Source of the DNA: an uncultured Gammaproteobacteria bacterium | Lineage (GTDB): Bacteria > Pseudomonadota > Gammaproteobacteria > UBA9214 | DNA: 64,000 nt | Direction: 5' to 3' | Assembly: GCA_963748215.1 (NCBI GenBank) | Contig: CAVVHS010000006.1 | Location: forward strand, 672,001 to 736,000 | In this document: one piece after another, positions 30,396 through 64,000 of the stretch | How positions within the stretch are numbered: position 1 is the first letter of the stretch | Layout: each line of letters opens with the position of its first letter | Notes under the pieces: model-generated | Seen by the model: only the letters and a program-made list of their open reading frames with translations | The model's database searches: none | What the model was told of the DNA's origin: nothing | Program-made: the position numbers and the translations under genes

Positions 30396-30938
30396 TCACG
30401 GCTCCGCTGCCAGCTGTTTCAGCAGCTCGATGATATCAGCCCTGCCCCACTCCACCGGGCCACGTCCGATGAAGCGAACCCGGCCGCTGCCATCCAGGAC
30501 GTAGGCCGTGGGGAGGACGCTAGCGCCCCAGCCCCTGAATGCCACACTGTCCTTGTCCAGCAGAACGGGGTACTCAATACCAAGCCGCTCAACCGCCGCT
30601 CGCACCCGTCGCCCGGCTTCACCGACGTTCACCCCGATCACCGCAAAGGGCGCGTCTGACATTGCCTCCATCAGTCGCTGGATGTCGGGCATCTCCTCGA
30701 TGCACGGCCTGCACCAGCTCGCCCAGAAGTTGACGAGCAGCACCTTGCCGGCGAACTCGTTCAGACTCCGTGCCCGCCCCGCAAGGTCCGGCAGTCTAAT
30801 AATTGGCGGCAGCACCGCAGGTACCTCGGTCAGCTCGCCGGCAGACGCGGGAAGCGGGAAAAGCCACAGGAGCGAAAGCATCAGAACCATCGTTGCGATA
30901 GCGCGAAGCGCCGTGTGTCGGCTTGTTGCGGCAGTCAT
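30396..30938 (-). CDS. TlpA/ResA-like thiol-disulfide oxidoreductase
   Basis: Signal peptide; LVNFWASWCRPCIEEMP; LPTAYVLD. Confidence 0.9.
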   Translation of the reverse strand: MTAATSRHTALRAIATMVLMLSLLWLFPLPASAGELTEVPAVLPPIIRLPDLAGRARSLNEFAGKVLLVNFWASWCRPCIEEMPDIQRLMEAMSDAPFAVIGVNVGEAGRRVRAAVERLGIEYPVLLDKDSVAFRGWGASVLPTAYVLDGSGRVRFIGRGPVEWGRADIIELLKQLAAEP

Positions 30939-31064
30939 GCGGGATTGTCCCGGGTTGCAGGGAATGCCTGTATTGACACACCTATCACGTCAAGTCGCAG
31001 TCCGCCATCGGCGGGCAAGGCCGGCAATCCACGCGATCGGGTGCGTCGGCCTCTGAATCGTAAT

Positions 31065-31098
31065 AAAAAAGGCCCCGCCGAGGAACCGGCGGGGCCTT
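31065..31098 (-). terminator. Intrinsic terminator after cytochrome gene
   Basis: aaggccccgccg/cggcggggcctt stem followed by T6 on the minus strand. Confidence 0.8.
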
Positions 31099-31145
31099 CG
31101 ATGCGTGGCGGCATCCCTGCCGCCGGGTTTGCTTCCGTAGTACCG

Positions 31146-34070
31146 TTACAGCTCGTTGCCGTGGCACATGTTACAGCGGATCGGTGTGCCTTTAGCCACA
31201 AAACCAACATCCGGCAGGTTACGGTCGGCCGCGGTGCGCGACAGGACCGAACCTTCACCGTTCTGGCCATGGCAGGTCCGACAGGCATTGCGGTTGATGT
31301 TCTGCCGGTGCCCGCCGTCGGCGAAGCTGGTGTTGCCCACCACGTGCATGCCATGCGGTCCCTGCAGGCTCGCGGTCGAACCATTCGTGCCCAGCGCGTT
31401 GAGATTGGTGTGGCACGTATCGCACTCGGTGATGGCACCGGTGTGTCCCTGCAACTGGTCCGCCGTAACATTGTCGTTGGACGCCGGGTTGCCGTTCGGC
31501 CATTCCGCGTGGGTGGCACCATGACAGCCCTCACACATCACACCGCCATGGCCCGTGCTGACGCGATACAACTGCGGGTTGCCCGCACCCGGGTTAGCGA
31601 AGTTGCCGAAGCTCGCCGGTACTGCCGGCTCGGCGAAGCGTTTGTTGGTCGGCACGATAGGCGTCGCCTTGGCGTCGCCACTGCGGTAAGCCTGGCGTAA
31701 ACGCAGACCGTCCACGTTGCCGTCCACATCCCGCGTGTTGGTGATGGTGTTGGGCGTACCCGCCAGATTGCTGGTGGTATCACCCGTATGACAGGAACCG
31801 CAACCCGGTTCGTTGGCCCAGGGCACGCGCGGCTGCGGGTCGTTCGGATCGTAGAAATTGCCGCCCAGTACGAAGGCCCCCGGGTTCTGCGGCGAGACCC
31901 CTGCCGAGAAGTCCGCACCCACCTGCTGCATGTCACCGTGACAGTCGTTACAGAGCATGCCGCCGTTGAACATCGCACCGCGCAGACACTGCACGTTGGT
32001 GCCCGGGTGGCACTGGTAGCAGGTGTCTTCCAGCACCGCCAGACGCGCGGCCTGGTTGGTGATGGCGCCAGCGGCGTTCTGGATCGGTGCCGGCATCGGC
32101 GGGAACAGGTTGCCGAGGCTGCCGTGGTGGCTGTGCATCACGTTGGAGTTGCTCGAATGCGCCACCTGGTTACGTCCGTTGGCAGCGGTGCCGGGGGCTC
32201 CAGCCACCGGGCCGACCTGCGCCAGGTCCAGCGCCGGGGTGTAGTGACACACCTGGCAGACCGCCGGCTTGCCCTGCACCAGTGCCAGGTTGATCAGGCA
32301 GCTGGCGTCGCCGTTTCCGCCATTGGCGGTGACGTCGCACGGCGTTGCAGCGCCCGAAGTATCAACGTAATTGGCACCATGCTTGAGGTCATGCAACCGC
32401 AGGATGTTGATGTCCGCGGCATACTCGACGCTAACATCGGTCGGCAGGGTCGGATCCGGGTCATCCAGGCTCGTTGCCACCGGCAGACCGGCGGCCATGA
32501 GCGTGCCGGTCGGCTGACTGGTGCGGCTGTTCGGCACGTCGGCCGGATCGGAGTGGCAGTTGGTGCAGCTCGCCTCGCCCGAGATCGGCAGCACGGTATC
32601 CACCGTGGCGACGGTGGTGTTGCCCTGCTTGGCCTCGACCCGCACCAGCGGATAGGCGTTCTCGCGACCGTAGTCGTCGTAGGCCGCGAACGGAATGCCC
32701 GCACCTTCGTACCAGTTCACGCCCGCGGCGACATAGCCAAACGGGAAGTCGATGAAGAACGGCTTGTCGCCATAGTGCTCGTTGACCGCTGTCGGAGAGT
32801 TGATGAAGTACGGGTTGGCCAGACCGGGCATCGCATGCTGCACGGCGGTGAGGCTTTCGTCACCGCTGTTGACCACACCGTCGGCACCGATGTAGAGCTC
32901 TTCCACGTTCGGCACCGGCAGGCCCACGTCCAGCGTGACCGGGAACCCTCCGTTTGCCAGCGGCGTAATGCCCAGTCCACCGGGGTAGAACGCGTCGTAC
33001 GCGCCGCCGTTAACCGCATTCCAGAAGTTGGTCTTGTAGCTGCTGCCGTCGGCCTTCAGCCCGCGCTGGACACCCGGAATACCCAGTATCGGGTCATTCG
33101 GATTGGAGGTCGCGGAGTACTCAAGGCCAATACCCGCCGGGTTCAGGGTCGGGGTGCTGCCCCGCTGGATCACCTGACCCAGCAGCACCTGGAACGGCGG
33201 CAGGATGCTGGAGATACGTGTATCCAGGTCGCCGCAATGCATGCCGAGATCGTTGATGGCCAGCACGCGGTAGGCGCCATTCAGCAACGTGTTCACCTCG
33301 GGCACCGTTTGTTCCGGGCAGCCGTCCTGGCTGGTGGAGTTGATGGAGAGGCTATTGGTAACCGGAATACACTGTACCTGCTGCTGTACGCCGGTGCCGG
33401 TCAGGGGCACGTTGACGGTGGTGATGCCGCTGCCGCTGATGGCCAGGTTACCGGTGTCTGCACCGGCTGCGGCTGGGGTGTAGGTAGCCGCGACGGTAGC
33501 CGTAGCGCCGACCGCGACATTGATGGTGGCGGGTGACGTGAGGGCGAACTCGCTGGTGCCGGTGCGGGCCACGCTGAGCGCGCAGGCGGCGGTGCCGGTG
33601 TTTGTCACGGTGGTGCTGCGAGTCACGGTGCTACCCACATTGACACTGCCGAAGGCCAGCGACGTCGGGTTTACCGTGATATTGCAGACCGGCTGCTGCG
33701 CGTCCTGAACGCTGGCCGTCGTGGAGTCGCTGGCCGATGCACCGTCGTTGTCGGTCACGGTCAGGGTTACGGTGTAGTTACCCGCCGCCGCGTAGGTGTG
33801 GTTCGGATTGGCCGCACTGCTGCTGCCGCCGTCTCCGAAATTCCAGGCATAGGTGCTGACAGTCCCGTCCGGATCGCTGGAGCCAGCGCTGGAGAAGCCG
33901 ATTGCTACACCGGTCGTAGCGCTGTAGGGTCCGTTGGCACTGGCCACCGGCGAGAGATTGTTGTCGCCGGTACTGTCACTTCCGCAGGCGGTGAGGCCCA
34001 GTAACATGAATGCGATTGCGAAGCAGGAGAGATACCGGGATAGCCGGGTGGACGTTGTGTTCTTTGACAT
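31146..34070 (-). CDS. Nonaheme cytochrome c lipoprotein with PKD and Ig-like domains
   Basis: Lipobox LTAC; PKD (YAWNFGDG...HTYAAAGNYTVTLTVTDNDG); Ig-like (SLAFGSVNVG); NDLGMHC motif; 9 CxxCH counted. Confidence 0.9.
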   Translation of the reverse strand: MSKNTTSTRLSRYLSCFAIAFMLLGLTACGSDSTGDNNLSPVASANGPYSATTGVAIGFSSAGSSDPDGTVSTYAWNFGDGGSSSAANPNHTYAAAGNYTVTLTVTDNDGASASDSTTASVQDAQQPVCNITVNPTSLAFGSVNVGSTVTRSTTVTNTGTAACALSVARTGTSEFALTSPATINVAVGATATVAATYTPAAAGADTGNLAISGSGITTVNVPLTGTGVQQQVQCIPVTNSLSINSTSQDGCPEQTVPEVNTLLNGAYRVLAINDLGMHCGDLDTRISSILPPFQVLLGQVIQRGSTPTLNPAGIGLEYSATSNPNDPILGIPGVQRGLKADGSSYKTNFWNAVNGGAYDAFYPGGLGITPLANGGFPVTLDVGLPVPNVEELYIGADGVVNSGDESLTAVQHAMPGLANPYFINSPTAVNEHYGDKPFFIDFPFGYVAAGVNWYEGAGIPFAAYDDYGRENAYPLVRVEAKQGNTTVATVDTVLPISGEASCTNCHSDPADVPNSRTSQPTGTLMAAGLPVATSLDDPDPTLPTDVSVEYAADINILRLHDLKHGANYVDTSGAATPCDVTANGGNGDASCLINLALVQGKPAVCQVCHYTPALDLAQVGPVAGAPGTAANGRNQVAHSSNSNVMHSHHGSLGNLFPPMPAPIQNAAGAITNQAARLAVLEDTCYQCHPGTNVQCLRGAMFNGGMLCNDCHGDMQQVGADFSAGVSPQNPGAFVLGGNFYDPNDPQPRVPWANEPGCGSCHTGDTTSNLAGTPNTITNTRDVDGNVDGLRLRQAYRSGDAKATPIVPTNKRFAEPAVPASFGNFANPGAGNPQLYRVSTGHGGVMCEGCHGATHAEWPNGNPASNDNVTADQLQGHTGAITECDTCHTNLNALGTNGSTASLQGPHGMHVVGNTSFADGGHRQNINRNACRTCHGQNGEGSVLSRTAADRNLPDVGFVAKGTPIRCNMCHGNEL

Positions 34071-34465: not shown

Positions 34466-35947
34466 TTAATTTACAGGCCCGGATGTATCGGTCGCGGCAT
34501 TGTCGACAACCTGCAACAGCTCGATGAGATAGATACTCGGCTCGAAACCGCGCAAGCCGCGTTTCCTTACACCGCCAGTGCTCGCGACGTTCGACGGTAC
34601 ATACAGCTCGAATTCTGCCCCTTCCCGCATTTCGAGCAGCGCTTCCTGCCAACCGGGCATAACCTGCTTCATGCTGAACGTCTTTGGCGCTCCGCGCGAA
34701 TATGTTTCAGTTGTTACCGCGCCATCAGGCCTGATTCCCACATAGGAAACCACGACCTGGTCAGCGAGCGTTGGCGACCTGCCGCTGCCAAACTTGACAA
34801 CCCGGTACTGGACGCCATTAGGCAGCGTGGTGACATCCCCGTTGGCCGCATTGTCCTCGAAGAATTCCCTTGCATCCTGCCGTGTATATTGCCGTTCACC
34901 CGCACTGAAAATAGTACGGGCACGACCGGACGTATTTCCGGATAACACCCGGTCAGGCTCGGGCTCGCCGCTAACGGCAGTGTCGAAGGCTGCTGGTTGC
35001 GCAGTTTCAACTGCAACATTTGCCGGTGTTGCATCCGCCACGGTGCTGCTGTCAACATCGGGCGGTTGCAGCTCTTCTTCCAGTGGCAGGTTGTCCATCG
35101 TAGTCTCTCCACTCAAGCCTCCGTTAACAGCGGCCATCAAGTTCTTGATATCCCTGCTCATGTCAGAGAGCATGGCGGCATTCTTCTGTCCATGCCAGAG
35201 CTGGACTCCCCCTACGGCGGCGCCGAGCAACAAGGCAAAGACCGCAGCCGTTATCGTCCAGTTCAGGCGATAATTCTGCTTGTGAACCCGACTCTGCATA
35301 ACCTGGAAATTCTTGAGCACATGCTGGCGTTCATTTTCCAGCTTGATGCCCAGTATCCTGACCTGGTTATCCATGGATTCAAGGCGGTTGCCGGTATCCG
35401 AGAGTGAAACATCAAACTGCCGCAGCTGCTCGACCGACTGGACCTGCAGGTCTCTGATCTGGGTATCTGTCTTGAGCAGCCGGGATGACGTTTCGCTCAG
35501 CGCGTCTTCAAGTGCTTTGACCTGATCACGAGCCTGAACGCGCTCGGTTTCGATTTCCGCAAGTCGCTTTCCCAGATCGAGGATGATGGCGCTGTCTGCC
35601 TCCCTGGCGGTCGCCAGCCGGCTGTTGCTCGATTCGAGCTCGGCCAGCTTTCGGACATCCTCGCCCCGGACACTCTCCAGGTTGTGAAGTACCTGCTCCA
35701 GGTCAGCGATCTGGCGATTTTCTTCATTGCAGACACGTTCAAGGTCCGTGCGAAACCGCTGCACCTGCTCGGTGAGAGCGCGGTTTTGACTGCTGAGGGT
35801 GGATACCTCGTGTTCGAGAACGTCCGAACCGGTCGTCTGTCGGCCACGGCCTGTTGATGGCTGTTTCAGCCTTGAGAGTAGACTTTCCCAGTACTGTCTG
35901 AGTGTGCGCACTGCAATCAACCTCTTATTATTAGCATCCGCAGCCAT
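34466..35947 (-). CDS. Coiled-coil + TM + FKBP-type PPIase-like domain protein
   Basis: ~220-aa heptad region, one TM helix, FkpA-like C-terminus (TLPNGVQYRVVKFGSG, QVMPGWQEALLEMREG). Confidence 0.75.
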   Translation of the reverse strand: MAADANNKRLIAVRTLRQYWESLLSRLKQPSTGRGRQTTGSDVLEHEVSTLSSQNRALTEQVQRFRTDLERVCNEENRQIADLEQVLHNLESVRGEDVRKLAELESSNSRLATAREADSAIILDLGKRLAEIETERVQARDQVKALEDALSETSSRLLKTDTQIRDLQVQSVEQLRQFDVSLSDTGNRLESMDNQVRILGIKLENERQHVLKNFQVMQSRVHKQNYRLNWTITAAVFALLLGAAVGGVQLWHGQKNAAMLSDMSRDIKNLMAAVNGGLSGETTMDNLPLEEELQPPDVDSSTVADATPANVAVETAQPAAFDTAVSGEPEPDRVLSGNTSGRARTIFSAGERQYTRQDAREFFEDNAANGDVTTLPNGVQYRVVKFGSGRSPTLADQVVVSYVGIRPDGAVTTETYSRGAPKTFSMKQVMPGWQEALLEMREGAEFELYVPSNVASTGGVRKRGLRGFEPSIYLIELLQVVDNAATDTSGPVN

Positions 35948-36308: not shown

Positions 36309-36396
36309 TTAAATCCTATTTAATCACGACGGTTGCCCGCGGTCGTCATCCTTTGTTCACGGATAGCACCGCAGCACGCCTGCTGGTGCGCGAATG

Positions 36397-36565: not shown

Positions 36566-37039
36566 TCAGGGCTTGCGCCCCTTCATGACCGGGTAGTTGG
36601 CCATAAGCCAGCCACCGAAGCCGCGCTCGATGTGAAAGACATTTTCGAAACCGTTATCGAGCAGAGTCTGCTCGGCCAGCCGTGTGCGCCGGCCGACAAT
36701 ACAGTAGATGACCACGCCATTCGGGTTATGCAGCTCGTCCAGGTGCTGATCCAGCGTGTCTTGCGGGATGTTGATGGCGCCGGGGATATGCCCCTTTCGA
36801 TACTCCTGCACGTCCCGTACGTCCACGACCAGGTAGGCCTCCGGCGTATCCTGCCGGGCTTTCAGATCCAGCGCGGTAATGGCCGGTGTCTGAAAATCGG
36901 CCCCCGGTGCGAGGGCCGGCAACAGGTAAAGGGAGAGCAGTACGGCACACCGCACCCTCCCCTTGCGCCAGGCTGCGAACAGACCCTCGGGTGCACATCG
37001 AGACGTCAGCCGCCCGAGCTGTGTTGCAGTCCGGACCAT
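36566..37039 (-). CDS. Exported single-domain rhodanese-like protein
   Basis: VVDVRDVQEYRKGHIPGAINIP; active-site loop YCIVGRR; GGWLMANYPV; start uncertain. Confidence 0.85.
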   Translation of the reverse strand: MVRTATQLGRLTSRCAPEGLFAAWRKGRVRCAVLLSLYLLPALAPGADFQTPAITALDLKARQDTPEAYLVVDVRDVQEYRKGHIPGAINIPQDTLDQHLDELHNPNGVVIYCIVGRRTRLAEQTLLDNGFENVFHIERGFGGWLMANYPVMKGRKP

Positions 37040-37089: not shown

Positions 37090-38703
37090 CTACTCGCCGC
37101 CGATGGTGGGCGCCTTGCCGCCGCGCAGCTTTTCGATTTCTTCGTAGACCTTTTCCGGCGACTGGGTACCCGTCTCGGACTTGATCTTGTACCAGTCGAT
37201 CTCCTTCTGCATGTGGTAAGAGAGCCTGTCGCTGTAGACCTCGACCGGAATATCTTTCTCTCGCAAGCCCACCACGTACTCGTTCAGCCGCTCCTTGATC
37301 ATGCGTCGCCTGGTCATGCGCCGCGTGCGATCCTCATCGGGGTCAGCATAGATTGCATCTTCCATGTCCTGCACCTGCACCAGATGCCACCCGTTCGGAG
37401 TTTCAACCGGTCCGCCCAGCTCGCCGGGGGCCAGTGAAAAGGCCAGTTTGTCCAGCTCGGGGAAGCCCGTGCCTTCCGTCACCCAGCCGATCTCGCCCAG
37501 CGTCTTGCCAGACGCAGGGATAATGGAATGGTCCTGCGCTGCCTGATACATGGTAATCGTTCCGCTCTCGATCATTTGCTTGATCGCCTCGGCGTCCTCC
37601 CTGGTCTTTAGCACCACGATCTGCAGCTTGCGGCGCGACGGAATCATGATGGAGTCGCGATGCTCGGCATAGTAATCGCGGACTTCCTGATCGCTAGGTG
37701 CGAACGCCTCGACCAGCTTGCCCCTGTGCAGATTGATCAGGTGTACCTTTTTGTACTCGTTGAAGGCATTGAGGTAGGCCGGGTCCTGCTCCAGGCCTGT
37801 GGCCCGTGCCTTGCTGGTCATAATCCGGTAGTCGATCAGTTCGTCAAGCGTGCTGATGCGCCGCTCCACCGACGCTGAACTGCCGCCCGCACTTAAAGGT
37901 ACCTTGACCTGCCCCCAGCGGAGCGGCTGGCCATCGATCTCCGCTACTACCTCGGCATCATCGCGTACCACATCATCTTCGGGATCCAGCTCCGTAACAT
38001 TGATGACGACCGGCACACCGTCCCGCAGCCGGGAGCGCATGTCGGTACCGCCCAGCCCGAGCTTCTGGTCACGCAGCTTGGACGCGATGGCCAGCCGGGT
38101 CTCATCGGTGAACTCGGTGCCCGCGGCAATGTTGTCCTTGAAATATGCCTCGACCTCCGCGTCCGTGACTTCGATCTGCTCCGACTTGTTACGCCGCTGG
38201 TAGACCAGGGCCAGCATGCCGTCTGAGAAGGTCTCGAGATCCCGCTGATACCCGGGATCCTTGTCCACGCCTTTTTGTATTGCATCCAGGTACAGCAGGT
38301 TGGCGCTGATGACCCGATCCAGCAGCGTCAGGCGCACCTGGTCGCGCTCCGGCGAACCCAGCTCCGGTATCGAGAGGCCCACGATGGCCGAGCTGTTGAT
38401 CATGGTGTTGAGCTGATTGAACGAGATGGGCTGGTCGCCAACCCTGGCAATGACGTCATCCTTGTACACCGGTGGCGCCGCTTCAGCCTGCTTCGGTTCC
38501 CCGGCCTGATTCAATGCTTCGGCCTGTTTCGGTTCCCCGGCCTGCTTCGGCACCTCAGCCTGCTTCGTATCCGCGGTGTTCGGTGCTTCGACCTGCCCCG
38601 GTTCCTGGACCGGTTGCAAGGCCTCGGCCTGTACCGGCGGAAACGCGGCAATACCGAGTAAAAAAGGCAATGTGGCAATGGCTACCGATAGAATGCTTTT
38701 CAT
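37090..38703 (-). CDS. PpiC/parvulin-type peptidyl-prolyl isomerase (SurA/PrsA-like chaperone)
   Basis: Signal peptide; two VIARVG/VVAEID chaperone-like halves; GEIGWV...FPELDKLAFSLAPGELGGPVETPNGWHLV. Confidence 0.85.
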   Translation of the reverse strand: MKSILSVAIATLPFLLGIAAFPPVQAEALQPVQEPGQVEAPNTADTKQAEVPKQAGEPKQAEALNQAGEPKQAEAAPPVYKDDVIARVGDQPISFNQLNTMINSSAIVGLSIPELGSPERDQVRLTLLDRVISANLLYLDAIQKGVDKDPGYQRDLETFSDGMLALVYQRRNKSEQIEVTDAEVEAYFKDNIAAGTEFTDETRLAIASKLRDQKLGLGGTDMRSRLRDGVPVVINVTELDPEDDVVRDDAEVVAEIDGQPLRWGQVKVPLSAGGSSASVERRISTLDELIDYRIMTSKARATGLEQDPAYLNAFNEYKKVHLINLHRGKLVEAFAPSDQEVRDYYAEHRDSIMIPSRRKLQIVVLKTREDAEAIKQMIESGTITMYQAAQDHSIIPASGKTLGEIGWVTEGTGFPELDKLAFSLAPGELGGPVETPNGWHLVQVQDMEDAIYADPDEDRTRRMTRRRMIKERLNEYVVGLREKDIPVEVYSDRLSYHMQKEIDWYKIKSETGTQSPEKVYEEIEKLRGGKAPTIGGE

Positions 38704-38896: not shown

Positions 38897-41800
38897 TTAC
38901 CAGCCGCAGGTGGTGCCTGTCCTGGCAATCGATACCTCTTCCCACACTGCCTCGGAAACACGCCCCTCGATGAGATGCCGCTTCCACTCTCTACCACGGT
39001 TGGTATTACCGCAGCTCACGTTGCCTTCGTTGCCGTGGCACGCGCGACAGACGGTTGTGGTACCACCGGTGTAGGGGTTGACCGGGTCGGGTACACCCGA
39101 CACGACACCCGCATTGGCCTCGGCATCGTCCATTGCCAGACGCGACACGCGGTTGATCATGGCGTGGATCTGCCACTCTTCATTGTTGGCCGAGATGGCG
39201 CCTGACAAGTTGCCATGGCAGTTCAGACAGACACTGGCACGCGGATCGGCCTCATCCGTGTAGGTGTGGGCCCAGGACACGGCGGCATCAAAGTCATTGA
39301 TCACCGGTACCGCGGGTCCACCATCGACCGGATCCGTGTAGCTCAGACCATCGACCCAGACTGGCACCTGGTCAGCGTTCACATGGGTGTGGCAGGTGGC
39401 ACATTTCAGCGGCCCATGCGAGCCGTCCTGGTTCAGGCCGGCTGCCTGCGCGTACGACGTGTTATCGATGGTCGGGGTCACGGGATAGAGGCCGTGAATC
39501 GACTCATGACAACCCTGGCAGGTGATGTCCTGGTGGCCACGCGAGTAGCGCATCAGGCTGGCCTTGCGCGGATAGTTGAACGGCGGGAACGCATTCACAT
39601 TGCCGCTCTGCTCCGTGTAAGGCGCCTTGTGGCAATCCGCACAGTGTGGCTCACCCGCGCTCAGCCAGTGATCCCGCCCGTCAGACGCCGTGGTGGCCGT
39701 CGAGGTCGAGAACGGAATGGTGAACGCCAGCGAGTTAACCAGCGTTGCCTGGGCCGCCGTTACGCAATCCGGCGTGGTGCAGAAGTCCATGATGTTGGCG
39801 GTGAAGTCGCCATCTGCATCGAAGTTGCCGCAGATGTTGAACACCGGTCCGCCCTCGGCTGAGCAGTCCACCGGACCGACCTGGCCGGGGGTCGAGCAGG
39901 CCTGTCCCGCCGACGGGATCGCCACCTCGATGGTCGCTACATTACCGTCGAAGGTTGGATCAAGCGGCGCCCCGGTGGCAACCGACACCACGTAGTTGCA
40001 GAGCCCTGGATCGCTCTTCCAGATGAAGTGGGTATCATCGGCCGGACGGGTACCCGCACCACTCAACGGCAGGTCGGGATCGATGGCCGGATCCTTGGGG
40101 TCGACCCAGGACTCGAGCTGCGCCAGGGTGGTACCGAGCTGAGTCGCCAGATCGGCCATGTCCACTGCCGCGCGCGGATTCTCACCCGGTGCACAGTCGT
40201 TGTGGACCAGGCTAATGCAGTTCTCGGCCTTCCACATCTGCTGACCGGCCTGGCTGTGACAGTTGGTGCACCAGATACCGCGCATGTCTTCCGTGCCACC
40301 CGGCTCCTGGGACTGGTTACGGAACACGAAATCGGACAGGTACTGACCCACCGCAGTGAGGTGCTCTGGCGTCTCGGCACCGTCGACATCCTTCATCGGG
40401 TTGGAGTGCACGTCACGACCCACGAAGCAACCACCCTGTGCCAACCGGTTGTCGCCGCTGGCCTGGAAGTTGTTGCCGTCCAGGTCGATCGGATAGCCGT
40501 CCATGACACCGTCGGAACGGTGTGCCGGGTGACAACCCTGACAGCCACCATCACGCCCGGTCGCGTCGTTGAAGACGATGTCACCGCCCTCGCTCTGGCT
40601 GCGATGGTTGTGGTGGAGAGCCTGTGAGAGCGCCGGAATCAGGCCGCCCTCGGCACAGCTGGCTGCCCCACCGCAGTTGGTCGACTTGACCACCGCGATC
40701 ACGTTATCAGCATGGCACTTCTGGCAGATGACGCTGTCGTGCCCGATGCGGGTGTTCTGCGGCAGGTCGCACACTTCATCCCCGATACCGGCACAATCCG
40801 CATGGCTGGCACAGGCCGGACCGGTCGGCGCCTTGTTCACCAGGCAGTTGGCCGGCGAGTTGAAGAAAGGCTCGCTCAGACCACCCAGCTCGGTCACCGG
40901 ATTAAACGGCGATCCGGCCGGAATCGCTGCTGCTGCCGGGTAATTGGCCAGGAACTGGGTGCCATGTTGTGTATCGTGGGTCCCCAGGATACTGATGGCT
41001 GCACCCTTCAGGCGCGCATACCAGTCAGAATCACCTCCTGCCACATCCAGGTCGTAGTAGGCCGCCCAGAAATCGTACTCGAGATTGACCAGCACCTCGT
41101 TCGCCGGGATCACGTTCGGGCTGTTGACATTGACATTGCCGAAGGCATCCGTGGGCGGTGCCGAGTGGCAGCGCTCGCAGTTCGGGATGTCGATGGGCGC
41201 ATCACCGAAGCCCTGCACCGGGTGACCCGAGCCATCGAGTACCACGTTCCCCGCGGTGCAGTTACCCGCAGCGTCGCAGACAGCATCGTGCAACTGCGCC
41301 GACATCTGCACATACGGGCGGATGGAGTCTTCGTCCACCAGACCCGGGTCGGCGAAGAAGCCCAGCGTATCCTCGAATGGCGTCAGCGGCAGGCCCAGGG
41401 CCTCCCAGATACGCGGCGAGGTCAGCATGATGGGCAGGTTCTCCACCAGCTTCATCTGGGTGAATACCACCGTACCGGTGTCCTCGGAGAAGGTCATGAA
41501 GGCGTTGTCGTTGAAGACACCGCCCGAGACCGGTCCCATCGGATGACCGCCCGGGCCGTAATTGGTCGGGTAGTCGACATCCAGGCCGAGGCGCAGCTTG
41601 GCGGATTCCAGGCTGGTGCCGGTGGGATTGCTCCCCTCCGTATCGGCGTAAATGTACAGGTGGTTCCACACGGCATTCTGGTAGTTATCCACCGGTACGC
41701 CGAAGGTATTGCCGATATCGCCGTAGTCACCATTGCCCTGCACCACGTTAATGGCTGCACAGGTCAAGGGGTCAAGCGGGTCGGTACACTCAGAGTTACC

Positions 41801-56388: not shown

Positions 56389-58110
56389 ATGGCAGTGGCA
56401 ACAAACGAGCTCCTCAGCGCGAACGACCGGGATCTTGGCGAACGACTGGTCGCGTCTGGCAAACTCACCCGCGGTGATCTCGAACGCACCGTCCAGATCC
56501 AGCGCGGGACACGGGAACGGCTGGATTCATTGCTGGTCCGTTCGGGCCTGGTATCCGAACAGGACGCTGCGCAGGCGCTCGCCGAGCAGCTGTCACGGCC
56601 GCTGACAGGGCCCGCCGACTATCCGGATTTCCCACTGCTCGAAGAGCAGCTCTCGGTGAAGTTTCTCAAGCACCACAAGATCGTGCCCCTGTCCTGTGAC
56701 GACGAGCAGCTGGTGGTCGCCATGGCCGATGCGCGCGACAGCTACGCAGTCAATGCGCTGGAACTGGTCAGCGCGCGGCAGGTCGTGCCGTGGGTGGGCC
56801 TGCCCTCGGAGATCGATACCGCACTGGAACATCTCTACGGCGCCGGCAAGACCCAGATGGCGCGCATTGTTGACGACCTCGCCGAGGCCAGTGAAGAGAC
56901 CACCACGCAGGAGCAGATCGCCCAGCTCCGGGACCTGGCCAGCGAGGGACCCGTTATCCGCCTGGTAAATCTGCTGGTCGAACATGCCGTGGAAGCCCGG
57001 GCATCGGACATACATGTCGAACCCTTCGAACACAAGTTGCGCGTTCGCTACCGTCTGGATGGCATGCTGCAGGAAGTCGAGGCGCCCCCGGCGCGCCTGT
57101 CTGCGGCGGTCATCTCCCGCATCAAGATCATGGCAAAACTGGACATCGCGGAACGCCGTTTGCCGCAGGATGGACGCATTCGGCTGCGGGTACGCGGCAG
57201 CAGTGTGGATCTGCGTGTATCGACGCTGCCAACCATGCACGGCGAAAGCGTGGTAATGCGGCTGCTGTACAAGGACAATGCAACACACGACTTCAGGAGC
57301 CTTGGTTTCGATGACGAGATCCTCGAGATCTTCCTGAAGACCGTGCGCATGCCGAACGGCATCGTGCTGGTAACCGGCCCGACCGGCAGCGGCAAGACGA
57401 CCACCCTGTACGCGGCGCTGACCTTGCTCAACGATCCCGCCCGCAAAATCATTACCGTCGAGGACCCGATCGAGTACGAGCTGACGGGCATCAACCAGAT
57501 CCAGGTGAAATCACAGATCGGCCTGACCTTCGCCAACACCCTGCGTTCCATCGTGCGCCAGGACCCGGACGTGATCATGATCGGCGAAATGCGTGATCTC
57601 GAAACAGCGGAGATAGCCGTCCAGTCGGCCCTGACCGGTCATCTGGTGCTGTCCACATTGCACACCAACGACGCGGCAGGCAGCGTCACCCGCATGCTGG
57701 ACATGGGCCTGAAGGAGTACCTGGTGACGTCCGTACTCAACGGTGTGCTTGCCCAGCGCCTGGTGCGCAGGCTCTGTCAGCAGTGCCGCCGGGCCTACCA
57801 GCCGTTACCGGAACTGATCGAGCAGACCCGGCTGGACCGGCTGGCGGCGGGGAAACCGATCGAACTCTACGAAGCCGTCGGCTGCGAGCACTGCCGCGGC
57901 ACCGGGTACCAGGGCCGCACCACGATCATGGAAATGCTGGTGATGTCCGACCAGATCCGCAGCATGATACTGCAGCATGCCGATGCACGTGATATCGCCA
58001 GGGCCGCCATTGCGGCAGGTATGCGCACGATGTACGAGGACGGTCTGCGCAAGGTGCTTGCCGGCGAGACCACCCTGGGCGAGGTGTTGCGGGTTACCCA
58101 GGAGACCTAG
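56389..58110 (+). CDS. gspE: Type II secretion ATPase
   Basis: ASDIHVEP, GPTGSGKTTT, RQDPDVIMIGEMRD, tetracysteine motif, MshEN-like N-terminus; GAGGTG RBS. Confidence 0.93.
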   Translation: MAVATNELLSANDRDLGERLVASGKLTRGDLERTVQIQRGTRERLDSLLVRSGLVSEQDAAQALAEQLSRPLTGPADYPDFPLLEEQLSVKFLKHHKIVPLSCDDEQLVVAMADARDSYAVNALELVSARQVVPWVGLPSEIDTALEHLYGAGKTQMARIVDDLAEASEETTTQEQIAQLRDLASEGPVIRLVNLLVEHAVEARASDIHVEPFEHKLRVRYRLDGMLQEVEAPPARLSAAVISRIKIMAKLDIAERRLPQDGRIRLRVRGSSVDLRVSTLPTMHGESVVMRLLYKDNATHDFRSLGFDDEILEIFLKTVRMPNGIVLVTGPTGSGKTTTLYAALTLLNDPARKIITVEDPIEYELTGINQIQVKSQIGLTFANTLRSIVRQDPDVIMIGEMRDLETAEIAVQSALTGHLVLSTLHTNDAAGSVTRMLDMGLKEYLVTSVLNGVLAQRLVRRLCQQCRRAYQPLPELIEQTRLDRLAAGKPIELYEAVGCEHCRGTGYQGRTTIMEMLVMSDQIRSMILQHADARDIARAAIAAGMRTMYEDGLRKVLAGETTLGEVLRVTQET

Positions 58111-58236
58111 CCCGCCGTTCTCGCCGGGTGATTAAAAGTGACTTCAGGGAATCAAAGCGTGAAAGGAATACAATTACGCCAACCAGGCGCATGTCAACGG
58201 ACACAGCCCGTCCCAAAGAGACGTCCGGGCTAGTCC

Positions 58237-59466
58237 ATGCCACGGTTTCGCTACAAGGCGGTGGGCGAGGACGGCCAGCTGATCCAGGGTGAGCTGCAGG
58301 CACCCAGCCACGAGGCGGTTATCGACTGGCTCCAGGACCACGGACACACTCCGATTCGGGCGGTCGAGAGCGGTGCGGCCAAGGACACCCTCCCAAGCAG
58401 CGCCGCGCCGCGCCTGCCGCGCCCGCTGCAAAAACGTCGCAAGGTGGACATAGGCCATTTCACCCGCGACCTGAGCACCTTGCTGGCTGCAGGTCTACAG
58501 CTGGAAAGAGCACTGCAGATACTTGCTGAAATGGCAGAGGACACGAACACCGCCGGGCTGTTGTCACGCCTGCTCGATGAAATCCGTGAAGGTGCATCCC
58601 TGGCAGCCGCCATGGAGGCGCAACAGGGCGTATTCAGCAAGTTCTATCTCAACATGGTTCGGGCCGGTGAGGCCGGTGGTGCAGTAGAAACGGTGCTGGG
58701 CCGGCTCGCGGTGTTTATGGAGCAGTACGATGAGCTCAAGTCCAGCATCAAGTCCGCACTCATCTATCCCAGCATCCTGATCACCATCACCGTGGCCTCG
58801 GTAATCATACTCGTCGTCTTTGTGGTCCCGCAGTTCGCCGCGCTGTTCGAGGACATGGGACAGGAATTACCCCTGCCGACCCGGATCGTCATCGGGTTCG
58901 GGGAAGCCTTTCAGAAATACGGCCTGGTAGCTGCCCTGCTGGTGAGCGTGTTGATCTACCTGCTGCGGCGCCAGCTCGCGAAGCCGCAGTTCAGATACCG
59001 CTGGGACAAGTGGCTGCTGGGCCTGCCGCTACTGGGCGAGCTGATCACCAAGATCGAAGTCACGGTGTTTGCACGCACGCTGGGCACGTTACTGGCGAGC
59101 GGTGTACCGATGCTGACGGCGCTCGGCATCGTGAAGGAGACACACACCAATCGGCTACTGCGCCAGGCTGTGGAATCGATCGCGGACAACGTGGAGCAAG
59201 GTCAGGGTCTGGCCGGGCCGATGCTGGAAACCGGCCGCTTTCCCCGCCTCGCCTCGCATCTGGTCCAGGTCGGGGAGGAAACCGGCCAGCTGGAGCAGAC
59301 CCTGAATCGTCTCGCGGATATCTACGACCGCGAGGTGACCATCTCCATCCAGCGCATGCTGGCGCTGGTGGAGCCGGTCCTGATTATCGGGCTAGGAATT
59401 GTCGTCGGGGGTATTATCATGTCGATTCTCGTCGCTGTACTGAGCGTGAATGACCTGGCCTTCTGA
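58237..59466 (+). CDS. gspF: Type II secretion platform protein
   Basis: MVRAGEAGG, ALIYP, VVPQF, VGEETGQL, LVEP. Confidence 0.93.
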   Translation: MPRFRYKAVGEDGQLIQGELQAPSHEAVIDWLQDHGHTPIRAVESGAAKDTLPSSAAPRLPRPLQKRRKVDIGHFTRDLSTLLAAGLQLERALQILAEMAEDTNTAGLLSRLLDEIREGASLAAAMEAQQGVFSKFYLNMVRAGEAGGAVETVLGRLAVFMEQYDELKSSIKSALIYPSILITITVASVIILVVFVVPQFAALFEDMGQELPLPTRIVIGFGEAFQKYGLVAALLVSVLIYLLRRQLAKPQFRYRWDKWLLGLPLLGELITKIEVTVFARTLGTLLASGVPMLTALGIVKETHTNRLLRQAVESIADNVEQGQGLAGPMLETGRFPRLASHLVQVGEETGQLEQTLNRLADIYDREVTISIQRMLALVEPVLIIGLGIVVGGIIMSILVAVLSVNDLAF

Positions 59467-59548
59467 CCCTGCCTGCAGCGCCGTGCCGCACACGGGCCCG
59501 ATAACACAACGTTGCAAAGCTCGAACCATAAACAACTCCGGAAACTCT

Positions 59549-59989
59549 ATGAAAGCCCAACACAACAGACATACCCGACCCGACACCCGCGGCTTTACCC
59601 TGATCGAACTGCTGGTCGTACTGGTGATACTCAGCATGCTGGCCGGTCTGGTCGGGCCGCGCATCATGAAATATGTCGGTGAATCCAAGACCAAGACAGC
59701 CCGCCTGCAGATCCAGGAACTCGGTGCGGCCATCGATCTCTACCACCTGGACGTCGGGCGTTATCCGAGCAGTGAACAGGGGCTGAATGCCCTGCTCGAG
59801 AAACCGGCGGATGCCGAGCACTGGAACGGGCCCTACCTCAAGAAGAACAAGACACCGCAGGATCCCTGGGGCTTTGACTATCACTTCGAATCGCCGGGCA
59901 CGAATGGTCCTGTTGACCTGTACTCACTCGGCGCCGACAACGCGCAGGGTGGCACGGGCGAGAACCAGGACATCAACAGCTGGGAGTAA
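59549..59989 (+). CDS. gspG: T2SS major pseudopilin
   Basis: GFTLIELLVV; YPSSEQGLNAL, WNGPYL, DPWG, YSLGADNAQGGTGENQDINSW. Confidence 0.95.
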   Translation: MKAQHNRHTRPDTRGFTLIELLVVLVILSMLAGLVGPRIMKYVGESKTKTARLQIQELGAAIDLYHLDVGRYPSSEQGLNALLEKPADAEHWNGPYLKKNKTPQDPWGFDYHFESPGTNGPVDLYSLGADNAQGGTGENQDINSWE

Positions 59990-59995
59990 GGGTGC

Positions 59996-60499
59996 ATGAA
60001 TGCTCGCCGCATGCGCAAACACCCGGGTGCCGGACGGCAGGCGACCCGCGGCGCAGCGCCCCAGCCGCAGTCCGGTTTCACGCTGATTGAACTGCTGGTC
60101 GTCATACTCATCGCAACGCTGCTCATTGCCACGGTCCCGCCGCTGTTCACGGGCAGCATCTCCGGCGCAGAATCACGTGCCGCAGCGCGCCAGCTTGCCA
60201 CCGCTTTGCGAGCCGTGCGTGGCCAGGCCATCGCGCAGCATCAGGAGACCGCCCTTCTGCTCGACCTCGACCAGCGGCGCTACCGAATCTCCGCAGCAGA
60301 GCGCGAGTTCCAGCTGGACAAGGACCTCGCCCTTACCCTCACCATTGCCCGCGGACAGGTCCTGGAACAGAACCTGGGCAGTATCCGTTTCTTCCCGGAC
60401 GGGAGTTCGAGTGGCGGGCGCATCAAACTGGCCAGTGACAGGCACGCGTATGTGATCGATGTCGACTGGCTCACGGGCAAGATCGAGCTGCATGACTGA
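59996..60499 (+). CDS. gspH: T2SS minor pseudopilin H
   Basis: GFTLIELL; IRFFPDGSSSGG; VDWLTG. Confidence 0.88.
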   Translation: MNARRMRKHPGAGRQATRGAAPQPQSGFTLIELLVVILIATLLIATVPPLFTGSISGAESRAAARQLATALRAVRGQAIAQHQETALLLDLDQRRYRISAAEREFQLDKDLALTLTIARGQVLEQNLGSIRFFPDGSSSGGRIKLASDRHAYVIDVDWLTGKIELHD

Positions 60500-60899
60500 A
60501 ATCAGGCACTCTCCTCGCAGAGACAGGGGGTTCTCGCTGCTGGAGGTACTGGTGGCCTTTGCCATTCTCGCCATTTCCCTGGGAACGCTGTTTGCCCTGT
60601 TTTCCACCGGATTCAGAAACGTTGACGTGGCCCGGGATTACAACCGCGCCGTGATCATGGCCGAATCGAAGCTTGCGGAAATTGACGCGACGCAAACGCT
60701 GACAGCGGGTGTATACGAAGGTGAATTCGACCCGCGCTATCGCTGGAGTGCGGAAGTAAGCGAATATCTGGCAGACGACGCGGCAACCCGGCCGGCGTTG
60801 CAACTGCGCATCTACCGGGTGACGGTGACGGTGTCCTGGGGCGAGTCGCCGCGCCCCCGATCGGTGGTCCTGACCACCCTGAGGACTACGAGTGGCTAG
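60492..60899 (+). CDS. gspI: T2SS minor pseudopilin I
   Basis: GFSLLEVLVAFAIL; VTVTVSW; start overlaps the gspH stop. Confidence 0.85.
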   Translation: MTEIRHSPRRDRGFSLLEVLVAFAILAISLGTLFALFSTGFRNVDVARDYNRAVIMAESKLAEIDATQTLTAGVYEGEFDPRYRWSAEVSEYLADDAATRPALQLRIYRVTVTVSWGESPRPRSVVLTTLRTTSG

Positions 60900-61599
60900 C
60901 CCGTGTTGCGCTCGCGGACCAGCGACCGACAACAACGCCCTGCGGACGGGTCGTCGCCACCGCATGACCTCCCCGGCTGTTTCCGCAGCCCGGGGTTTTA
61001 CGCTGCTGGAGCTGATCATTGCCATCACCCTGTCCGGCCTGATCATGGTGCTCGCATTCAGTGCGATGCGACTGGCCATCAGCAGCTGGCGCACCGTGGA
61101 GTCCGTCGATGCCAGCCTGGAAGAACTCCAGGTGGTGCAGGGATTTCTACGCCGCCAGCTCGAGCAGGCCAGGAGCATGACCCGCACCAACCAGTCGGAG
61201 CAGAACACCACGCTGAAAGGCAATGCACGCGCCCTGAATTTCATCGCCCCGATGCCGGGCAGCCGGCTCGGTGTCTGGGGCCTGTACCGGTTCACTCTGG
61301 CCTTCGTCCCGGTGGATTCCGGTACGAATCTGCAAATCACGTACTGGCTGGCCTTGCCGCCGGCGGATCCGGACCGGATTGCCGGTGAGGCACAGACCCG
61401 AATCCTGCTCAGGGACCTCGAATCCGGTGCCTTTTCCTACTATGGCACGCCGACGGCCAAGGAGCCGGCGACATGGCACGATGAATGGGCCAGCGATGCG
61501 TCATTGCCCCAGCTGGTCAGGGTGCGGCTGCTCAGCCGGGACAAGGCAAACTACTGGCCGGACCTCATCATACCCGTCCATGCGCGGGGTAATGGCTGA
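60892..61599 (+). CDS. gspJ: T2SS minor pseudopilin J
   Basis: GFTLLELIIA; WHDEW...LPQLVRV...WPDL; start may be 60964. Confidence 0.85.
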   Translation: MASPCCARGPATDNNALRTGRRHRMTSPAVSAARGFTLLELIIAITLSGLIMVLAFSAMRLAISSWRTVESVDASLEELQVVQGFLRRQLEQARSMTRTNQSEQNTTLKGNARALNFIAPMPGSRLGVWGLYRFTLAFVPVDSGTNLQITYWLALPPADPDRIAGEAQTRILLRDLESGAFSYYGTPTAKEPATWHDEWASDASLPQLVRVRLLSRDKANYWPDLIIPVHARGNG

Positions 61600-62570
61600 T
61601 GCGACTGTCCCGTGAAAGCGACCCGGCACCGGGTGTCCGGTTGCCTGTGCACCAACACGCACACCGCGCCCGGCACACCCTGACCGCGCGCAGCCGCATA
61701 CCCGGGCAACGGGGCATCGCACTGCTGATCGTACTGTGGATTGTGGCGCTGCTTGCGATCATAGCCGGCAGCAGCGCGGTCAGCGTAAGAACGCAGACCG
61801 CGATCGTGGACAACCTGGTTGTTTCGGCCCGCGCCCGTGCCGCGGCGCAGGCCGGGCTGCACTATGCCGCCTTCCAGCTGCTCAAGCAGAACGCCGCAGA
61901 GCGCTGGCGCACTGACGGCACCGTGTACGAGCTGGGCTATGGCGATGCCCGCCTGCGCATCACCGCGGTCGAAGAAGCTGGAAAAGTCAGCCTCAACGCC
62001 GCACCCGGCGATATGATCGGCAGGCTGTTGCGTACGGCCGGCATCGATGACGACCGCGCTGCGGCACTGGTCGATGCCATTCTGGACTGGCGTGATCCCG
62101 ATGACCTGCGGCGCATCAACGGCGCCGAACAGGATGACTACCGGGCTGCCGGCCGCAGTTACCTGCCGAGAAACAGTCCGTTTCAAAGCAACGATGAAGT
62201 GGCGCTGGTGCTGGGCATGCAACCCGACGACTTTGCCAGGATACAAGGCGCGGTGACTGCCTATTCGGGATCTGCCAGTGTTGATCCGGCCGTGGCGGTA
62301 CCGCTGGTCCGGCTTGCCCTGAACGGGGGCATACCAGGTGATACCGAGTCCGCTCAATCTGCCCTGGCCAGCACTGCGCTTGGAACCCTGCGACCCACTG
62401 CCCCGGGTTCCCTGCTCAGTGTCCATGTCGAGGCCGGGATGCCCGGTGGTGTGCGGGAGCGGTTAACGGCAGTGATCAAACTCAGGCCGGCACAACAGGG
62501 AGCGGCGTTTGCGGTGTTCGCCTGGCAGGAGCAGGCCGGGGCGATGCTCCCCGGGCGAAACGCTGATTAA
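61599..62570 (+). CDS. gspK: T2SS minor pseudopilin K
   Basis: RGIALLIVLW (no E5); EAGKVSLN; ILDWRDPDD...GAE. Confidence 0.9.
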   Translation: MRLSRESDPAPGVRLPVHQHAHRARHTLTARSRIPGQRGIALLIVLWIVALLAIIAGSSAVSVRTQTAIVDNLVVSARARAAAQAGLHYAAFQLLKQNAAERWRTDGTVYELGYGDARLRITAVEEAGKVSLNAAPGDMIGRLLRTAGIDDDRAAALVDAILDWRDPDDLRRINGAEQDDYRAAGRSYLPRNSPFQSNDEVALVLGMQPDDFARIQGAVTAYSGSASVDPAVAVPLVRLALNGGIPGDTESAQSALASTALGTLRPTAPGSLLSVHVEAGMPGGVRERLTAVIKLRPAQQGAAFAVFAWQEQAGAMLPGRNAD

Positions 62571-62615
62571 TACCTCTGCCTTCAAGCCTGCACACGGGAT
62601 ATATTGCAACCCTGC

Positions 62616-63161
62616 TCAGGGTCGCAAGCCCGGCAGAAGTCCGGCAGGCATGCCGTTGTTAGTACGGATCTCCTTGTCCGGTTCGAGGGCAAGCTCCAGT
62701 CGCTCCTCGCCGCGTGTGAAGGTGGCGCCCGCGCTCTGAACACGCTCGACCGTCCAGCCCTGGTGTGACATACCCTCTGCAAGCTGCAGCAGCTGGTTGT
62801 TGCCGAGATCGCGGACCACGACGATCCGCGACTCGGGGGTGATGACCACCCCTTCCAGTTGCAGACGGACAGGAGGGCCCTTCGCCACGGGCTTTTCCGA
62901 TGTCGCCGGCTCTGCGGGCGGCTGACGCCCCTCGCTGAACAACGGGCGCTCGAGGATCTCGTCGAACATCCCGATGGGGGGAGCCTTGTAGGTCATTCGG
63001 GTGAGCGGAACAGCATTGTCTGATCCCGGGCGCGACTCCGCCGGGTCGCTGATTCGGGTCTGTGTCGCGAAATACCATTCGGCCGCGACCAGGACAGCCA
63101 TCAAGGCGCAGGCCAGCAGCAGGAACGGCGTCAGTCTGTTACCAAAAGGGAGACGCTTCAT
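62616..63161 (-). CDS. T2SS accessory protein (XpsN/GspC-like)
   Basis: N-terminal TM helix, ERPLFSEGRQPP, LEGVVITP, GWTVERV; overlaps the gspM stop. Confidence 0.65.
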   Translation of the reverse strand: MKRLPFGNRLTPFLLLACALMAVLVAAEWYFATQTRISDPAESRPGSDNAVPLTRMTYKAPPIGMFDEILERPLFSEGRQPPAEPATSEKPVAKGPPVRLQLEGVVITPESRIVVVRDLGNNQLLQLAEGMSHQGWTVERVQSAGATFTRGEERLELALEPDKEIRTNNGMPAGLLPGLRP

Positions 63162-63736
63162 GATTGATGCGGCATGTAGCCGACCAGTTCGAAATCCATG
63201 TCAAGGCTCTGCCGGGTATTGACCTTACGCTGCTGGTAACGACTGCCGAGCGCGCGCACCGACACCGAGTCCAGAAACAGAAACAGTTTATCGGTCTCGA
63301 TGCTGTAGAATACCGCCACGGCGCTCTCCAGTGTGCCGCGCATACGCACTCTCAGGGCGACGCGGGTAAATCCCTGCTCCTGCACCGGCGGTACGATCTG
63401 TGTGCTCAGGATCTCGGCCTGATTCGCCGTAACGATACGCTTCACGACCTGCTGCAGCTCGGCAGCAGCCAGCGATTCGTTGTCACTGGTCAGATAGCGC
63501 ACATCGGACACCTGCCAGCTTTTCAGCTGTTCGTAGCGCGGCTGCAGGCTCGCGCCGGCTGCAGCAACCTGCCTGAGTTGCTGCCACCGGCCCTGCAGGG
63601 CGTCGATGTTGTCCTGATAGTGGCGGTTCGCCAGCCAGAGCGGCAGCACCGTCACGCTCATGACCAGCCCGACCAGCAGGATCAGGATTGCCACAGCCGC
63701 CGCACGACGCTGCCCGTCACTCAAGGTTTCGATCAT
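63158..63736 (-). CDS. gspM: T2SS protein M
   Basis: TM helix, coiled segment, LAAAELQQVVK, IETDKLFLFLDSVSV; follows the GspL-like gene. Confidence 0.8.
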   Translation of the reverse strand: MIETLSDGQRRAAAVAILILLVGLVMSVTVLPLWLANRHYQDNIDALQGRWQQLRQVAAAGASLQPRYEQLKSWQVSDVRYLTSDNESLAAAELQQVVKRIVTANQAEILSTQIVPPVQEQGFTRVALRVRMRGTLESAVAVFYSIETDKLFLFLDSVSVRALGSRYQQRKVNTRQSLDMDFELVGYMPHQS

Positions 63737-64000
63737 GGCACCGCTCCCTCCACCACATCTGCAGACAGGTGGAAACGCTCTGCATTCGAGCGCGCGACCT
63801 GGGTAATCGGCGAGCGAAAACGTGCGTTTTGCAGGAGGGGCGAGGATTCGATGAGCGGGATAAGTGCCGCCACAGCTGTGGATTCTCCCTGCAGCTGGAC
63901 TTCCGAACCCTTGATCTCCAGCCGGTTGACCCAGGTGTCATCGGGCAGAATTCGCGTGACTTCATTCAAAATCTGCAGCGTCAGCAGCCTTGACTGCTTC
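63733..64000 (-). CDS. gspL: T2SS protein L / PilN-domain protein, 3' end only
   Basis: LNEVTRILPDDTWVNRLE...LQGES...LIESSPLLQNARFRSPI; 5' part outside the window. Confidence 0.75.
   Translation of the reverse strand, partial: KQSRLLTLQILNEVTRILPDDTWVNRLEIKGSEVQLQGESTAVAALIPLIESSPLLQNARFRSPITQVARSNAERFHLSADVVEGAVP

Follow-up and report, generated by a model that had tools for sequence, protein, structure and literature searches.

The window analysed here is a stretch of 64,000 nucleotides, positions 672001-736000 of contig C6 in G000, a 95% complete genome whose proteins have homologues named from Thiogranum-like Gammaproteobacteria (C7 and C8 are further contigs of the same genome). This sulfur-oxidising bacterium encodes RuBisCO, as found by family search, and soxB; its dsrA and an MtrAB-like pair are present as split genes. 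Our subject is a candidate cohesin-dockerin tethering system, represented in the window by three genes on the minus strand. The first (51693..52253) encodes a single-cohesin anchor of 186 amino acids, composed of a signal peptide, a cohesin (about residues 24-158), and a VPLPA-CTERM tail. The second (38897..44722) encodes a secreted 10-haem cytochrome of 1941 amino acids with a Sec signal, five Big_9/cadherin-like repeats, a TSP3-dockerin module, and ten CXXCH motifs, one at the N-terminus and nine in the core. The third (53025..55775) encodes a subtilase of 916 amino acids with three Calx-beta domains, an S8 domain carrying the Asp/His/Ser motifs, and a C-terminal TSP3-dockerin.

The sequence-only reading of this stretch had described the small protein between the cytochrome and the subtilase as cohesin-like with a PEP-CTERM-type tail, and our profile and structure searches agree. 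The VPLPA-CTERM model scored 26.8, above its cut-off of 25.35, and the Pfam Cohesin model, which is insensitive to this cohesin family, scored 23.7 against a cut-off of 24.1. In the predicted structure (predicted local distance difference test, pLDDT, 89.5), the tail forms a transmembrane helix. Foldseek returned cohesins as matches to the cohesin model (best E 3.5e-9), and in VIA-align it reached Z 16.4 with a root-mean-square deviation of 2.2 over 133 residues, cohesins filling ranks 1-20 and pilins scoring at most 10.3. Judged by this model, the protein has a true cohesin fold. The sequence marks of an exosortase substrate are present: the signal peptide, the VPLPA-CTERM tail, and an exosortase gene in G000 (E 4e-52, family search). 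A predicted complex of cohesin, dockerin, and calcium scored 0.20 against a mark of 0.32.

The claim that the cytochrome and the subtilase carry similar modules was likewise confirmed: the two (42695..42964 and 53040..53339, both on the minus strand) are 54% identical, with an E value of 7e-32 within the genome. Their Pfam Dockerin_1 scores, 17.6 and 18.2, fall under the cut-off of 22.9, which four of the seven paralogues shown from the surrounding gene island pass. When a profile of 34 modules was compared with the PDB, 26 dockerin or dockerin-bearing sequences ranked above the first EF-hand protein (best E 3e-9); a few of these entries are named only as enzymes, and presumably contain a dockerin. 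The modules show the duplicated Ca2+-loop/helix with D/N at positions 1, 3, 5, 9, and 12, and by sequence the element common to both proteins is a TSP3 repeat plus a dockerin. A TSP3-dockerin also occurs internally in an Rhs-repeat protein of Methylomonas methanica (L113:1602-6341).

We next considered which residues of the dockerins differ among genomes, using an alignment of 40 modules; the within- and between-genome figures come from 35 modules of four genomes. The variable residues form a code at positions 10, 11, 13, 14, and 17 of both dockerin repeats. We take positions 10, 11, and 17 to be the recognition positions of cellulosome dockerins, while positions 13 and 14 emerged from these data. 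Similarity within versus between genomes was 0.62 versus 0.16 at positions 10 and 11, 0.73 versus 0.13 at positions 13 and 14, and 0.86-0.91 versus 0.34-0.37 at position 17; for the variable TSP3 columns it was 0.44 in both comparisons. Position 10 was identical in both repeats of all 40 modules. The code reads P-T/F-T/K in G000, in both repeats of the cytochrome, with P-S/F-T/K in the subtilase, and mostly A-F/I-P/R in the related genome G027. All seven orthologous cargo pairs of G000 and G027 share none of the ten code residues, with catalytic parts about 70-96% identical. Since synonymous codons are not homogenised (identity of 0.59 within and 0.58 between genomes at 16 genome-specific columns), wholesale gene conversion is unlikely. 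Symmetric, species-specific residues are a hallmark of type I dockerins (PMC12484212; this paper, the others cited by PMC number, and the preprint below are cited as far as their available text extends). Cohesin identity followed the code (rho 0.29, 0 of 2000 permutations) more closely than TSP3 similarity (rho 0.15, 91 of 2000), based on 21 cohesin-dockerin pairs, one of the 22 given being unaligned; the figures are uncorrected for phylogeny, and G027 is an exception. No other indirect sign points so strongly to a genome-specific protein as the binding partner of the modules, and the cohesin is the evident candidate. One G027 dockerin (L020:4061-7303) has a code of the type found in G000 and G031 (P-S, P-G), and two further outliers read L-D and V-L; these could be recent arrivals or second specificities.

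To examine co-occurrence, as the sequence-only reading had proposed, we compared 36 congeners of G000 (37 genomes of the genus with G000), 78 metagenomic cytochrome loci, many of them short, and a GTDB dockerin scan in which at least 585 stretches were confirmed and 75 loci returned. All counts include related genomes or loci, so that entries are not independent. A dockerin was found in nine of the 36 relatives. Six of these nine matched the cohesin model over its full length at 80 bits or more, a line set after seeing the data, compared with none of the other 27 (Fisher 4e-5, inflated by kin). A tight cassette of cohesin, dockerin-cytochrome, and PpiC genes recurs in G007 and G008; in G002 the cohesin lies just downstream, and in G031 subtilase, cohesin, and cytochrome form one run. 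A soxB-linked locus has both dockerin and cohesin in G002 and G008, and neither in its C7 copy in G000. Among the metagenomic loci, a cohesin accompanied two of 11 with a dockerin and none of 67 without (p 0.018). In GTDB, 19 of the 75 dockerin loci had a cohesin match, 15 of them within 300 bp on the same strand (14 of 17 once one weak match, in a protein of 1332 amino acids, was removed and one duplicate merged). The hosts of the cohesin matches included Methylomonas, Methylococcales, Ca. Thiodiazotropha, Sulfuricaulis, Burkholderiales, and Aquabacterium. Among cultured strains, Methylomonas methanica R-45363, Thiohalobacter thiocyanaticus Hrh1, and Aquabacterium sp. CECT 9606 carry the dockerin, and in the last of these a cohesin gene lies beside it. 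Cargo families, assigned in 53 of the 113 dockerin frames scanned, included cytochromes, S8, C25, M4, M14, and M36 peptidases, GSDH dehydrogenases, and glycoside hydrolases.

The same data bear on the possibility that the module is a mere Ca2+-binding stabiliser or secretion tag, with the cohesin-fold protein an unrelated PEP-CTERM neighbour. The window's dockerins and cohesin do score under their Pfam cut-offs, many VPLPA-CTERM proteins are encoded in G000, and most GTDB dockerin loci show no cohesin nearby. However, a Ca2+ tag leaves unexplained the genome-specific, repeat-symmetric residues on unrelated cargoes, and cohesin genes abut dockerin genes in Methylomonas, Ca. Thiodiazotropha, Sulfuricaulis, Aquabacterium, and others. 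We therefore regard this explanation as very improbable.

The system extends well beyond the window. G000 contains ten dockerin modules in total, nine at C6 711-786 kb and the tenth on C8, and a second cohesin at C6 805 kb; the island spans roughly 100 kb, and eight further dockerin proteins, overlooked by the sequence-only reading, lie outside the window. Within the island, the nine dockerin-tagged proteins comprise three multicopper oxidases, a dihaem MauG/MbnH-like enzyme, and three uncharacterised proteins in addition to the cytochrome and the subtilase. No glycoside hydrolase or cellulose-binding module was found among these haem and copper enzymes, protease, and uncharacterised proteins. 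The cargo on C8 is a large beta-lactamase-family protein with GH115_C/LamG accessory domains. Using a profile built from the cohesin family of G000 and its kin, we found just two cohesins in the genome, both single-domain. Because only single-cohesin anchors were found, the arrangement suggests one-to-one tethering and not a scaffolded cellulosome. The shared, cellulosome-like surface scaffold that had been proposed is thus not borne out: the cytochrome and the protease would compete for anchors.

One of the island's oxidases is a probable MnxG orthologue (NF041487). Model positions 1-1894 are covered over three consecutive frames, scoring 1139, 749, and 376 bits (full-length cut-off 3100), with the dockerin on the last; the best PDB match is MnxG 9bxa (E 8e-36). 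It is followed by genes for a beta-propeller, a SurA/PpiC protein, two SCO proteins, and a cytochrome c-binding protein. This MnxG likely oxidises Mn(II), and the eight cargoes other than the cytochrome and the subtilase, MnxG among them, point mostly to Mn(II) oxidation. MnxG was found in three of the 37 genomes of the genus. Two loci (L001:10100-13398 and L002:2324-8945) hold related secreted proteins arranged as tandem pairs, none matching a catalytic family and the second of each pair bearing a dockerin. In G027, G031, L131, and L137 such pairs are retained in the interval from the dihaem enzyme to the oxidase, and they are possibly partners of the Mn oxidases. An ESM Atlas search with one uncharacterised cargo returned unnamed clusters only. 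At L003:8732-13533, a multicopper oxidase is followed by two FKBP isomerases, which resembles Leptothrix mofA-mofB (PMC5566968) by gene order only. A scan for sigma-54 sites gave nine against 6.2 expected, which is not an enrichment; three lie upstream of oxidase-cluster starts.

The island also carries its own type II secretion system (T2SS), with gspE, F, G, H, I, J, and K at 56389..62570 on the plus strand, and a gspC-like gene, gspM, and the end of gspL at 62616..64000 on the minus strand. The gspD gene and the Mn-oxidase part of the island continue past the window (C6 737-805 kb). Family search showed this to be a second T2SS beside the housekeeping one, and so ruled out a BLAST reading in which the genome held a single GspK. 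A T2SS was present in all nine dockerin-bearing relatives. No porin-cytochrome genes of the MtrAB type were found in the island; the MtrAB-like pair of G000 lies on C8, where the region L007:6872-14850 encodes a 15-haem protein matching the octahaem tetrathionate reductase family, and a split DmsE/MtrA-like decahaem protein with an MtrB/PioB porin.

Parts of the region are present in thirteen RNA runs. In RNA-library contigs from all four of the sediment runs compared, the cohesin gene was covered at 98% identity or higher and the cytochrome in parts, while 45032..46359 was almost uncovered and the subtilase patchy; these contigs give neither level nor strand, and DNA carry-over is possible.

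For the cytochrome, a Pfam match to PF22113 (MtrC domain II/IV) was weak, at 20.2 against a cut-off of 30. A PDB sequence search with the core gave no match, OmcZ included. The core model (pLDDT 70), with its 1155 residues searched whole and not by single domains, gave nothing at E 0.001 in Foldseek and a best VIA Z of 6.0, to Ig-like parts. As far as these comparisons by sequence and whole-core model go, the 9-haem core belongs to an undescribed cytochrome family; we do not claim a new fold. The core is widespread, with 705 matches among 8000 candidates. A dockerin was present in 12 of the best 120 homologues, some of them partial, and since the other 108 lack it, the tether appears to be an optional add-on of the family. 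Within the genus, 23 of the 37 genomes contain this 10-haem family, which is also represented in Thiogranum and Ca. Thiodiazotropha records. On C7 of G000 (L006:5692-19739), a dockerin-less 10-haem paralogue precedes PpiC- and TlpA-like genes and soxB; the position of this locus beside soxB and ccm genes hints at a role in sulfur redox chemistry. A second, 5-haem cytochrome family has a C-terminal dockerin (L114:8138-10195 and L117:7694-10192), and in Methylomonas a cohesin-CTERM gene directly follows its gene.

The vicinity of subtilase, cytochrome, and prolyl isomerases raises another, non-exclusive possibility, in which the subtilase trims the cytochrome with isomerase help, releasing or polymerising the haem core, and the dockerins join enzyme and substrate. 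The same three gene types form the omcZ-ozpA-prolyl isomerase operon (bioRxiv 10.64898/2026.07.18.739370), and G000, G027, and G031 each have a dockerin-bearing subtilase close to the cytochrome, with G019 having one in the same region. Yet the 20-kb loci of G002, G007, and G008 have no subtilase and the core has no sequence match to OmcZ, and we hold such a role to be highly unlikely.

Taken together, we consider it probable, by analogy with cellulosomes, PEP-CTERM proteins, and T2SS biology, that the cohesin protein is exported, sorted by exosortase, and anchors redox and protease cargo, one per anchor, at the surface or in a cell-bound matrix. The anchor would leave through Sec, be processed at its VPLPA-CTERM tail, and be retained there. 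The cargo (the cytochrome, the subtilase, MnxG, two other multicopper oxidases, the dihaem enzyme, and the uncharacterised proteins) would fold in the periplasm with the help of PpiC, FKBP, TlpA, and SCO proteins, exit through the island T2SS, and clip onto its anchor by a dockerin loaded with Ca2+, which has the genome-specific code in both of its symmetric repeats. Docking would keep costly haem and copper enzymes on their producer, and the proximity of cytochrome, protease, and oxidases would arise from crowding of anchors and not from a fixed complex.

Several observations weigh against surface anchoring by the cohesin, besides the post hoc choice of the 80-bit line and of positions 13 and 14. 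A multi-cohesin scaffold was not found in G000 with the family-derived profile in this 95% complete genome. Three of the nine dockerin-bearing relatives (83-91% complete) lack a cohesin match, and two dockerin-less genomes, G010 and G006, have full-length matches to the cohesin model at 69 and 60 bits; the insensitive Pfam model matched nothing in G017, G034, G016, G010, or G006. No cohesin was matched within the available DNA of nine of the 11 metagenomic and 56 of the 75 GTDB dockerin loci, and in a control, non-cohesin CTERM frames lay within 300 bp of the dockerin gene in five of 17 cases. The best G027 cohesin is 43% like that of G000 though their codes share nothing. Frameshifts split MnxG, one other oxidase, and one uncharacterised cargo; since the genes for DsrA and the MtrB-like porin are likewise interrupted, assembly error is the likely cause in the island, and the many split genes of G000 are likely assembly indels. 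It is also unsettled by which route PEP-CTERM proteins exit and where they are finally anchored (PMC12188702).

Two other locations were considered. The cohesin may be shed into an exopolysaccharide or biofilm matrix, where real binding would hold the enzymes near the colony without wiring them to the outer membrane. PEP-CTERM proteins have been described as attached or released and as possible exopolysaccharide components (PMC12188702), and the genome's MtrAB-type conduit lies on C8 and not in the island. A private, genome-specific code, however, makes more sense if the cargo stays with its producer, and we find shedding doubtful. Alternatively, the cohesin could stay on the inner membrane by an uncleaved tail and hold or pilot cargo in the periplasm, either ahead of secretion or with no secretion at all. 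The modelled transmembrane helix and the periplasmic action of some PEP-CTERM proteins, such as the scytonemin example (PMC12188702), would suit this arrangement. The cargo, however, measures up to 1941 amino acids or more and contains repeats of the adhesin type (Big_9, Calx-beta, and TSP3), the island holds an extra T2SS, and MnxG-type oxidases are T2SS-exported in P. putida (PMC13689576), which makes retention in the periplasm quite improbable.

The chemistry is the least certain part of the anchoring mechanism, within which Mn(II) oxidation is likely for MnxG. In an extended form, MnxG and other oxidases would be docked beside the cytochrome, which would receive electrons from Mn(II) or solid sulfur and feed them into respiration by way of the MtrAB-like conduit encoded on C8. 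Such a surface metal-oxidation board in a RuBisCO-bearing host would amount to chemolithotrophic metal oxidation organised by a species-private cohesin-dockerin code; we think it unlikely.

The cytochrome cluster has further neighbours, all on the minus strand. The TlpA, PpiC, FKBP-like, and T2SS genes noted previously were all recovered: a TlpA/ResA-like thioredoxin (30396..30938; Pfam AhpC-TSA/Redoxin), also beside the cytochrome in G002 and G008; a coiled-coil protein with an FKBP-type prolyl isomerase (34466..35947); and a PpiC/SurA-type prolyl isomerase (37090..38703; Pfam), whose gene comes after the cytochrome gene in G002, G007, G008, G027, and G031. The supposed lipid-anchored paralogue (31146..34070) is indeed a 9-haem cytochrome with a lipobox, PKD, and an Ig domain; it lacks a dockerin, and its kinship with the 10-haem protein is only distant (27% identity over 179 residues, E 2e-6). 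Three features had been overlooked: a rhodanese-domain protein (36566..37039); the broken remains of two genes (45409..46532), one for SCO and one for a cytochrome c/periplasmic-binding protein, the latter intact in G027; and a TIGR03790-like protein with three Calx-beta domains and a JDVT-CTERM tail (46802..51019), a paralogue of which in G027 bears a dockerin. The island ends carry duplicated segments (window 26728..27759, 48296..50948, and 51693..52281 versus C6 797.9-805.4 kb), with 82% identity in a small lipoprotein-like gene region, 98% over 2.7 kb in the TIGR03790-like gene, and 76% in the cohesin gene. Adjoining the cytochrome cluster, 27686..29134 (minus strand) encodes a protein of 482 amino acids with no Pfam or NCBIfam match and a beta-barrel-like C-terminal Phe, possibly an outer-membrane protein. 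Farther away are a sulfur-globule-protein-like gene scoring below cut-off (11405..11812, minus), a dynamin-family GTPase (6249..7796, minus), and a DUF1631 gene with a PilZ neighbour (23164..25386, plus).

If the anchoring reading is true, cohesin-dockerin pairing would move from polysaccharide digestion to redox chemistry. It would address how diderms retain secreted multihaem cytochromes and Mn oxidases without a lipid anchor, and what most PEP-CTERM proteins do. The same anchor turns up repeatedly in Proteobacteria, with peptidases, hydrolases, and dehydrogenases as cargo, and may represent a general, overlooked display route. The code difference between sister species offers ready means of testing specificity and perhaps new orthogonal pairs for use in surface display. 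In the open literature, we found no dockerin-fused cytochrome or Mn oxidase and no cohesin-dockerin-PEP-CTERM arrangement.

Cohesin-dockerin surface anchoring is itself already known; what surprises here is the redox cargo and the species code, in an arrangement that is not a cellulosome. The clostridial single-cohesin anchors OlpA and OlpC carry an SLH anchor. Type I clostridial cellulosomes, including OlpA/OlpC (PDB 3ul4, 4dh2), share the cohesin fold, the duplicated Ca2+-loop dockerin, and symmetric, species-specific residues, whereas the present system has a diderm host, a VPLPA-CTERM anchor, a TSP3 repeat joined to the front of a short dockerin, and redox and protease cargo, with neither scaffoldin nor CBM3. 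The 'Planctosome' of freshwater Planctomycetes (PMC6461901) is a hypothetical cohesin-dockerin complex outside cellulosomes; its host is likewise a diderm, and peptidases and TSP3 repeats are part of it, but the available text proposes a lamin-tail anchor with adaptor proteins for peptide degradation, and mentions no exosortase tail, cytochrome, or oxidase cargo. Anaerobic methanotrophic archaea (ANME) and their partner sulfate reducers (PMC9012536, PMC5244752, PMC10553843) have non-cellulosomal surface cohesins and dockerins in electron-exchanging microbes, and a role in multihaem cytochrome adhesion has been speculated upon (PMC5244752); as far as those texts describe, their dockerins sit on binding and S-layer proteins, not on cytochromes, and they have multi-cohesin proteins. 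The Geobacter omcZ-ozpA-prolyl isomerase operon similarly combines a secreted multihaem cytochrome with a protease and an isomerase, with no sequence relation found, and for Shewanella MtrC/OmcA the resemblance is the weak, below-cut-off MtrC domain match, the 10-haem protein here lacking a lipid anchor. The nearest parallel for the Mn oxidases is P. putida GB-1, whose mnxG/mcoA loci with the xcm T2SS (PMC11409713, PMC13689576) contain the same six genes (MnxG, the beta-propeller, two SCO proteins, the cytochrome c-binding protein, and SurA) and, like the island, a second oxidase followed by SCO, plus an extra T2SS. The word 'dockerin' occurs zero times in PMC13689576; in the island, by contrast, SurA comes earlier in the order, the oxidases bear dockerins, and the host has RuBisCO, soxB, and dsrA.

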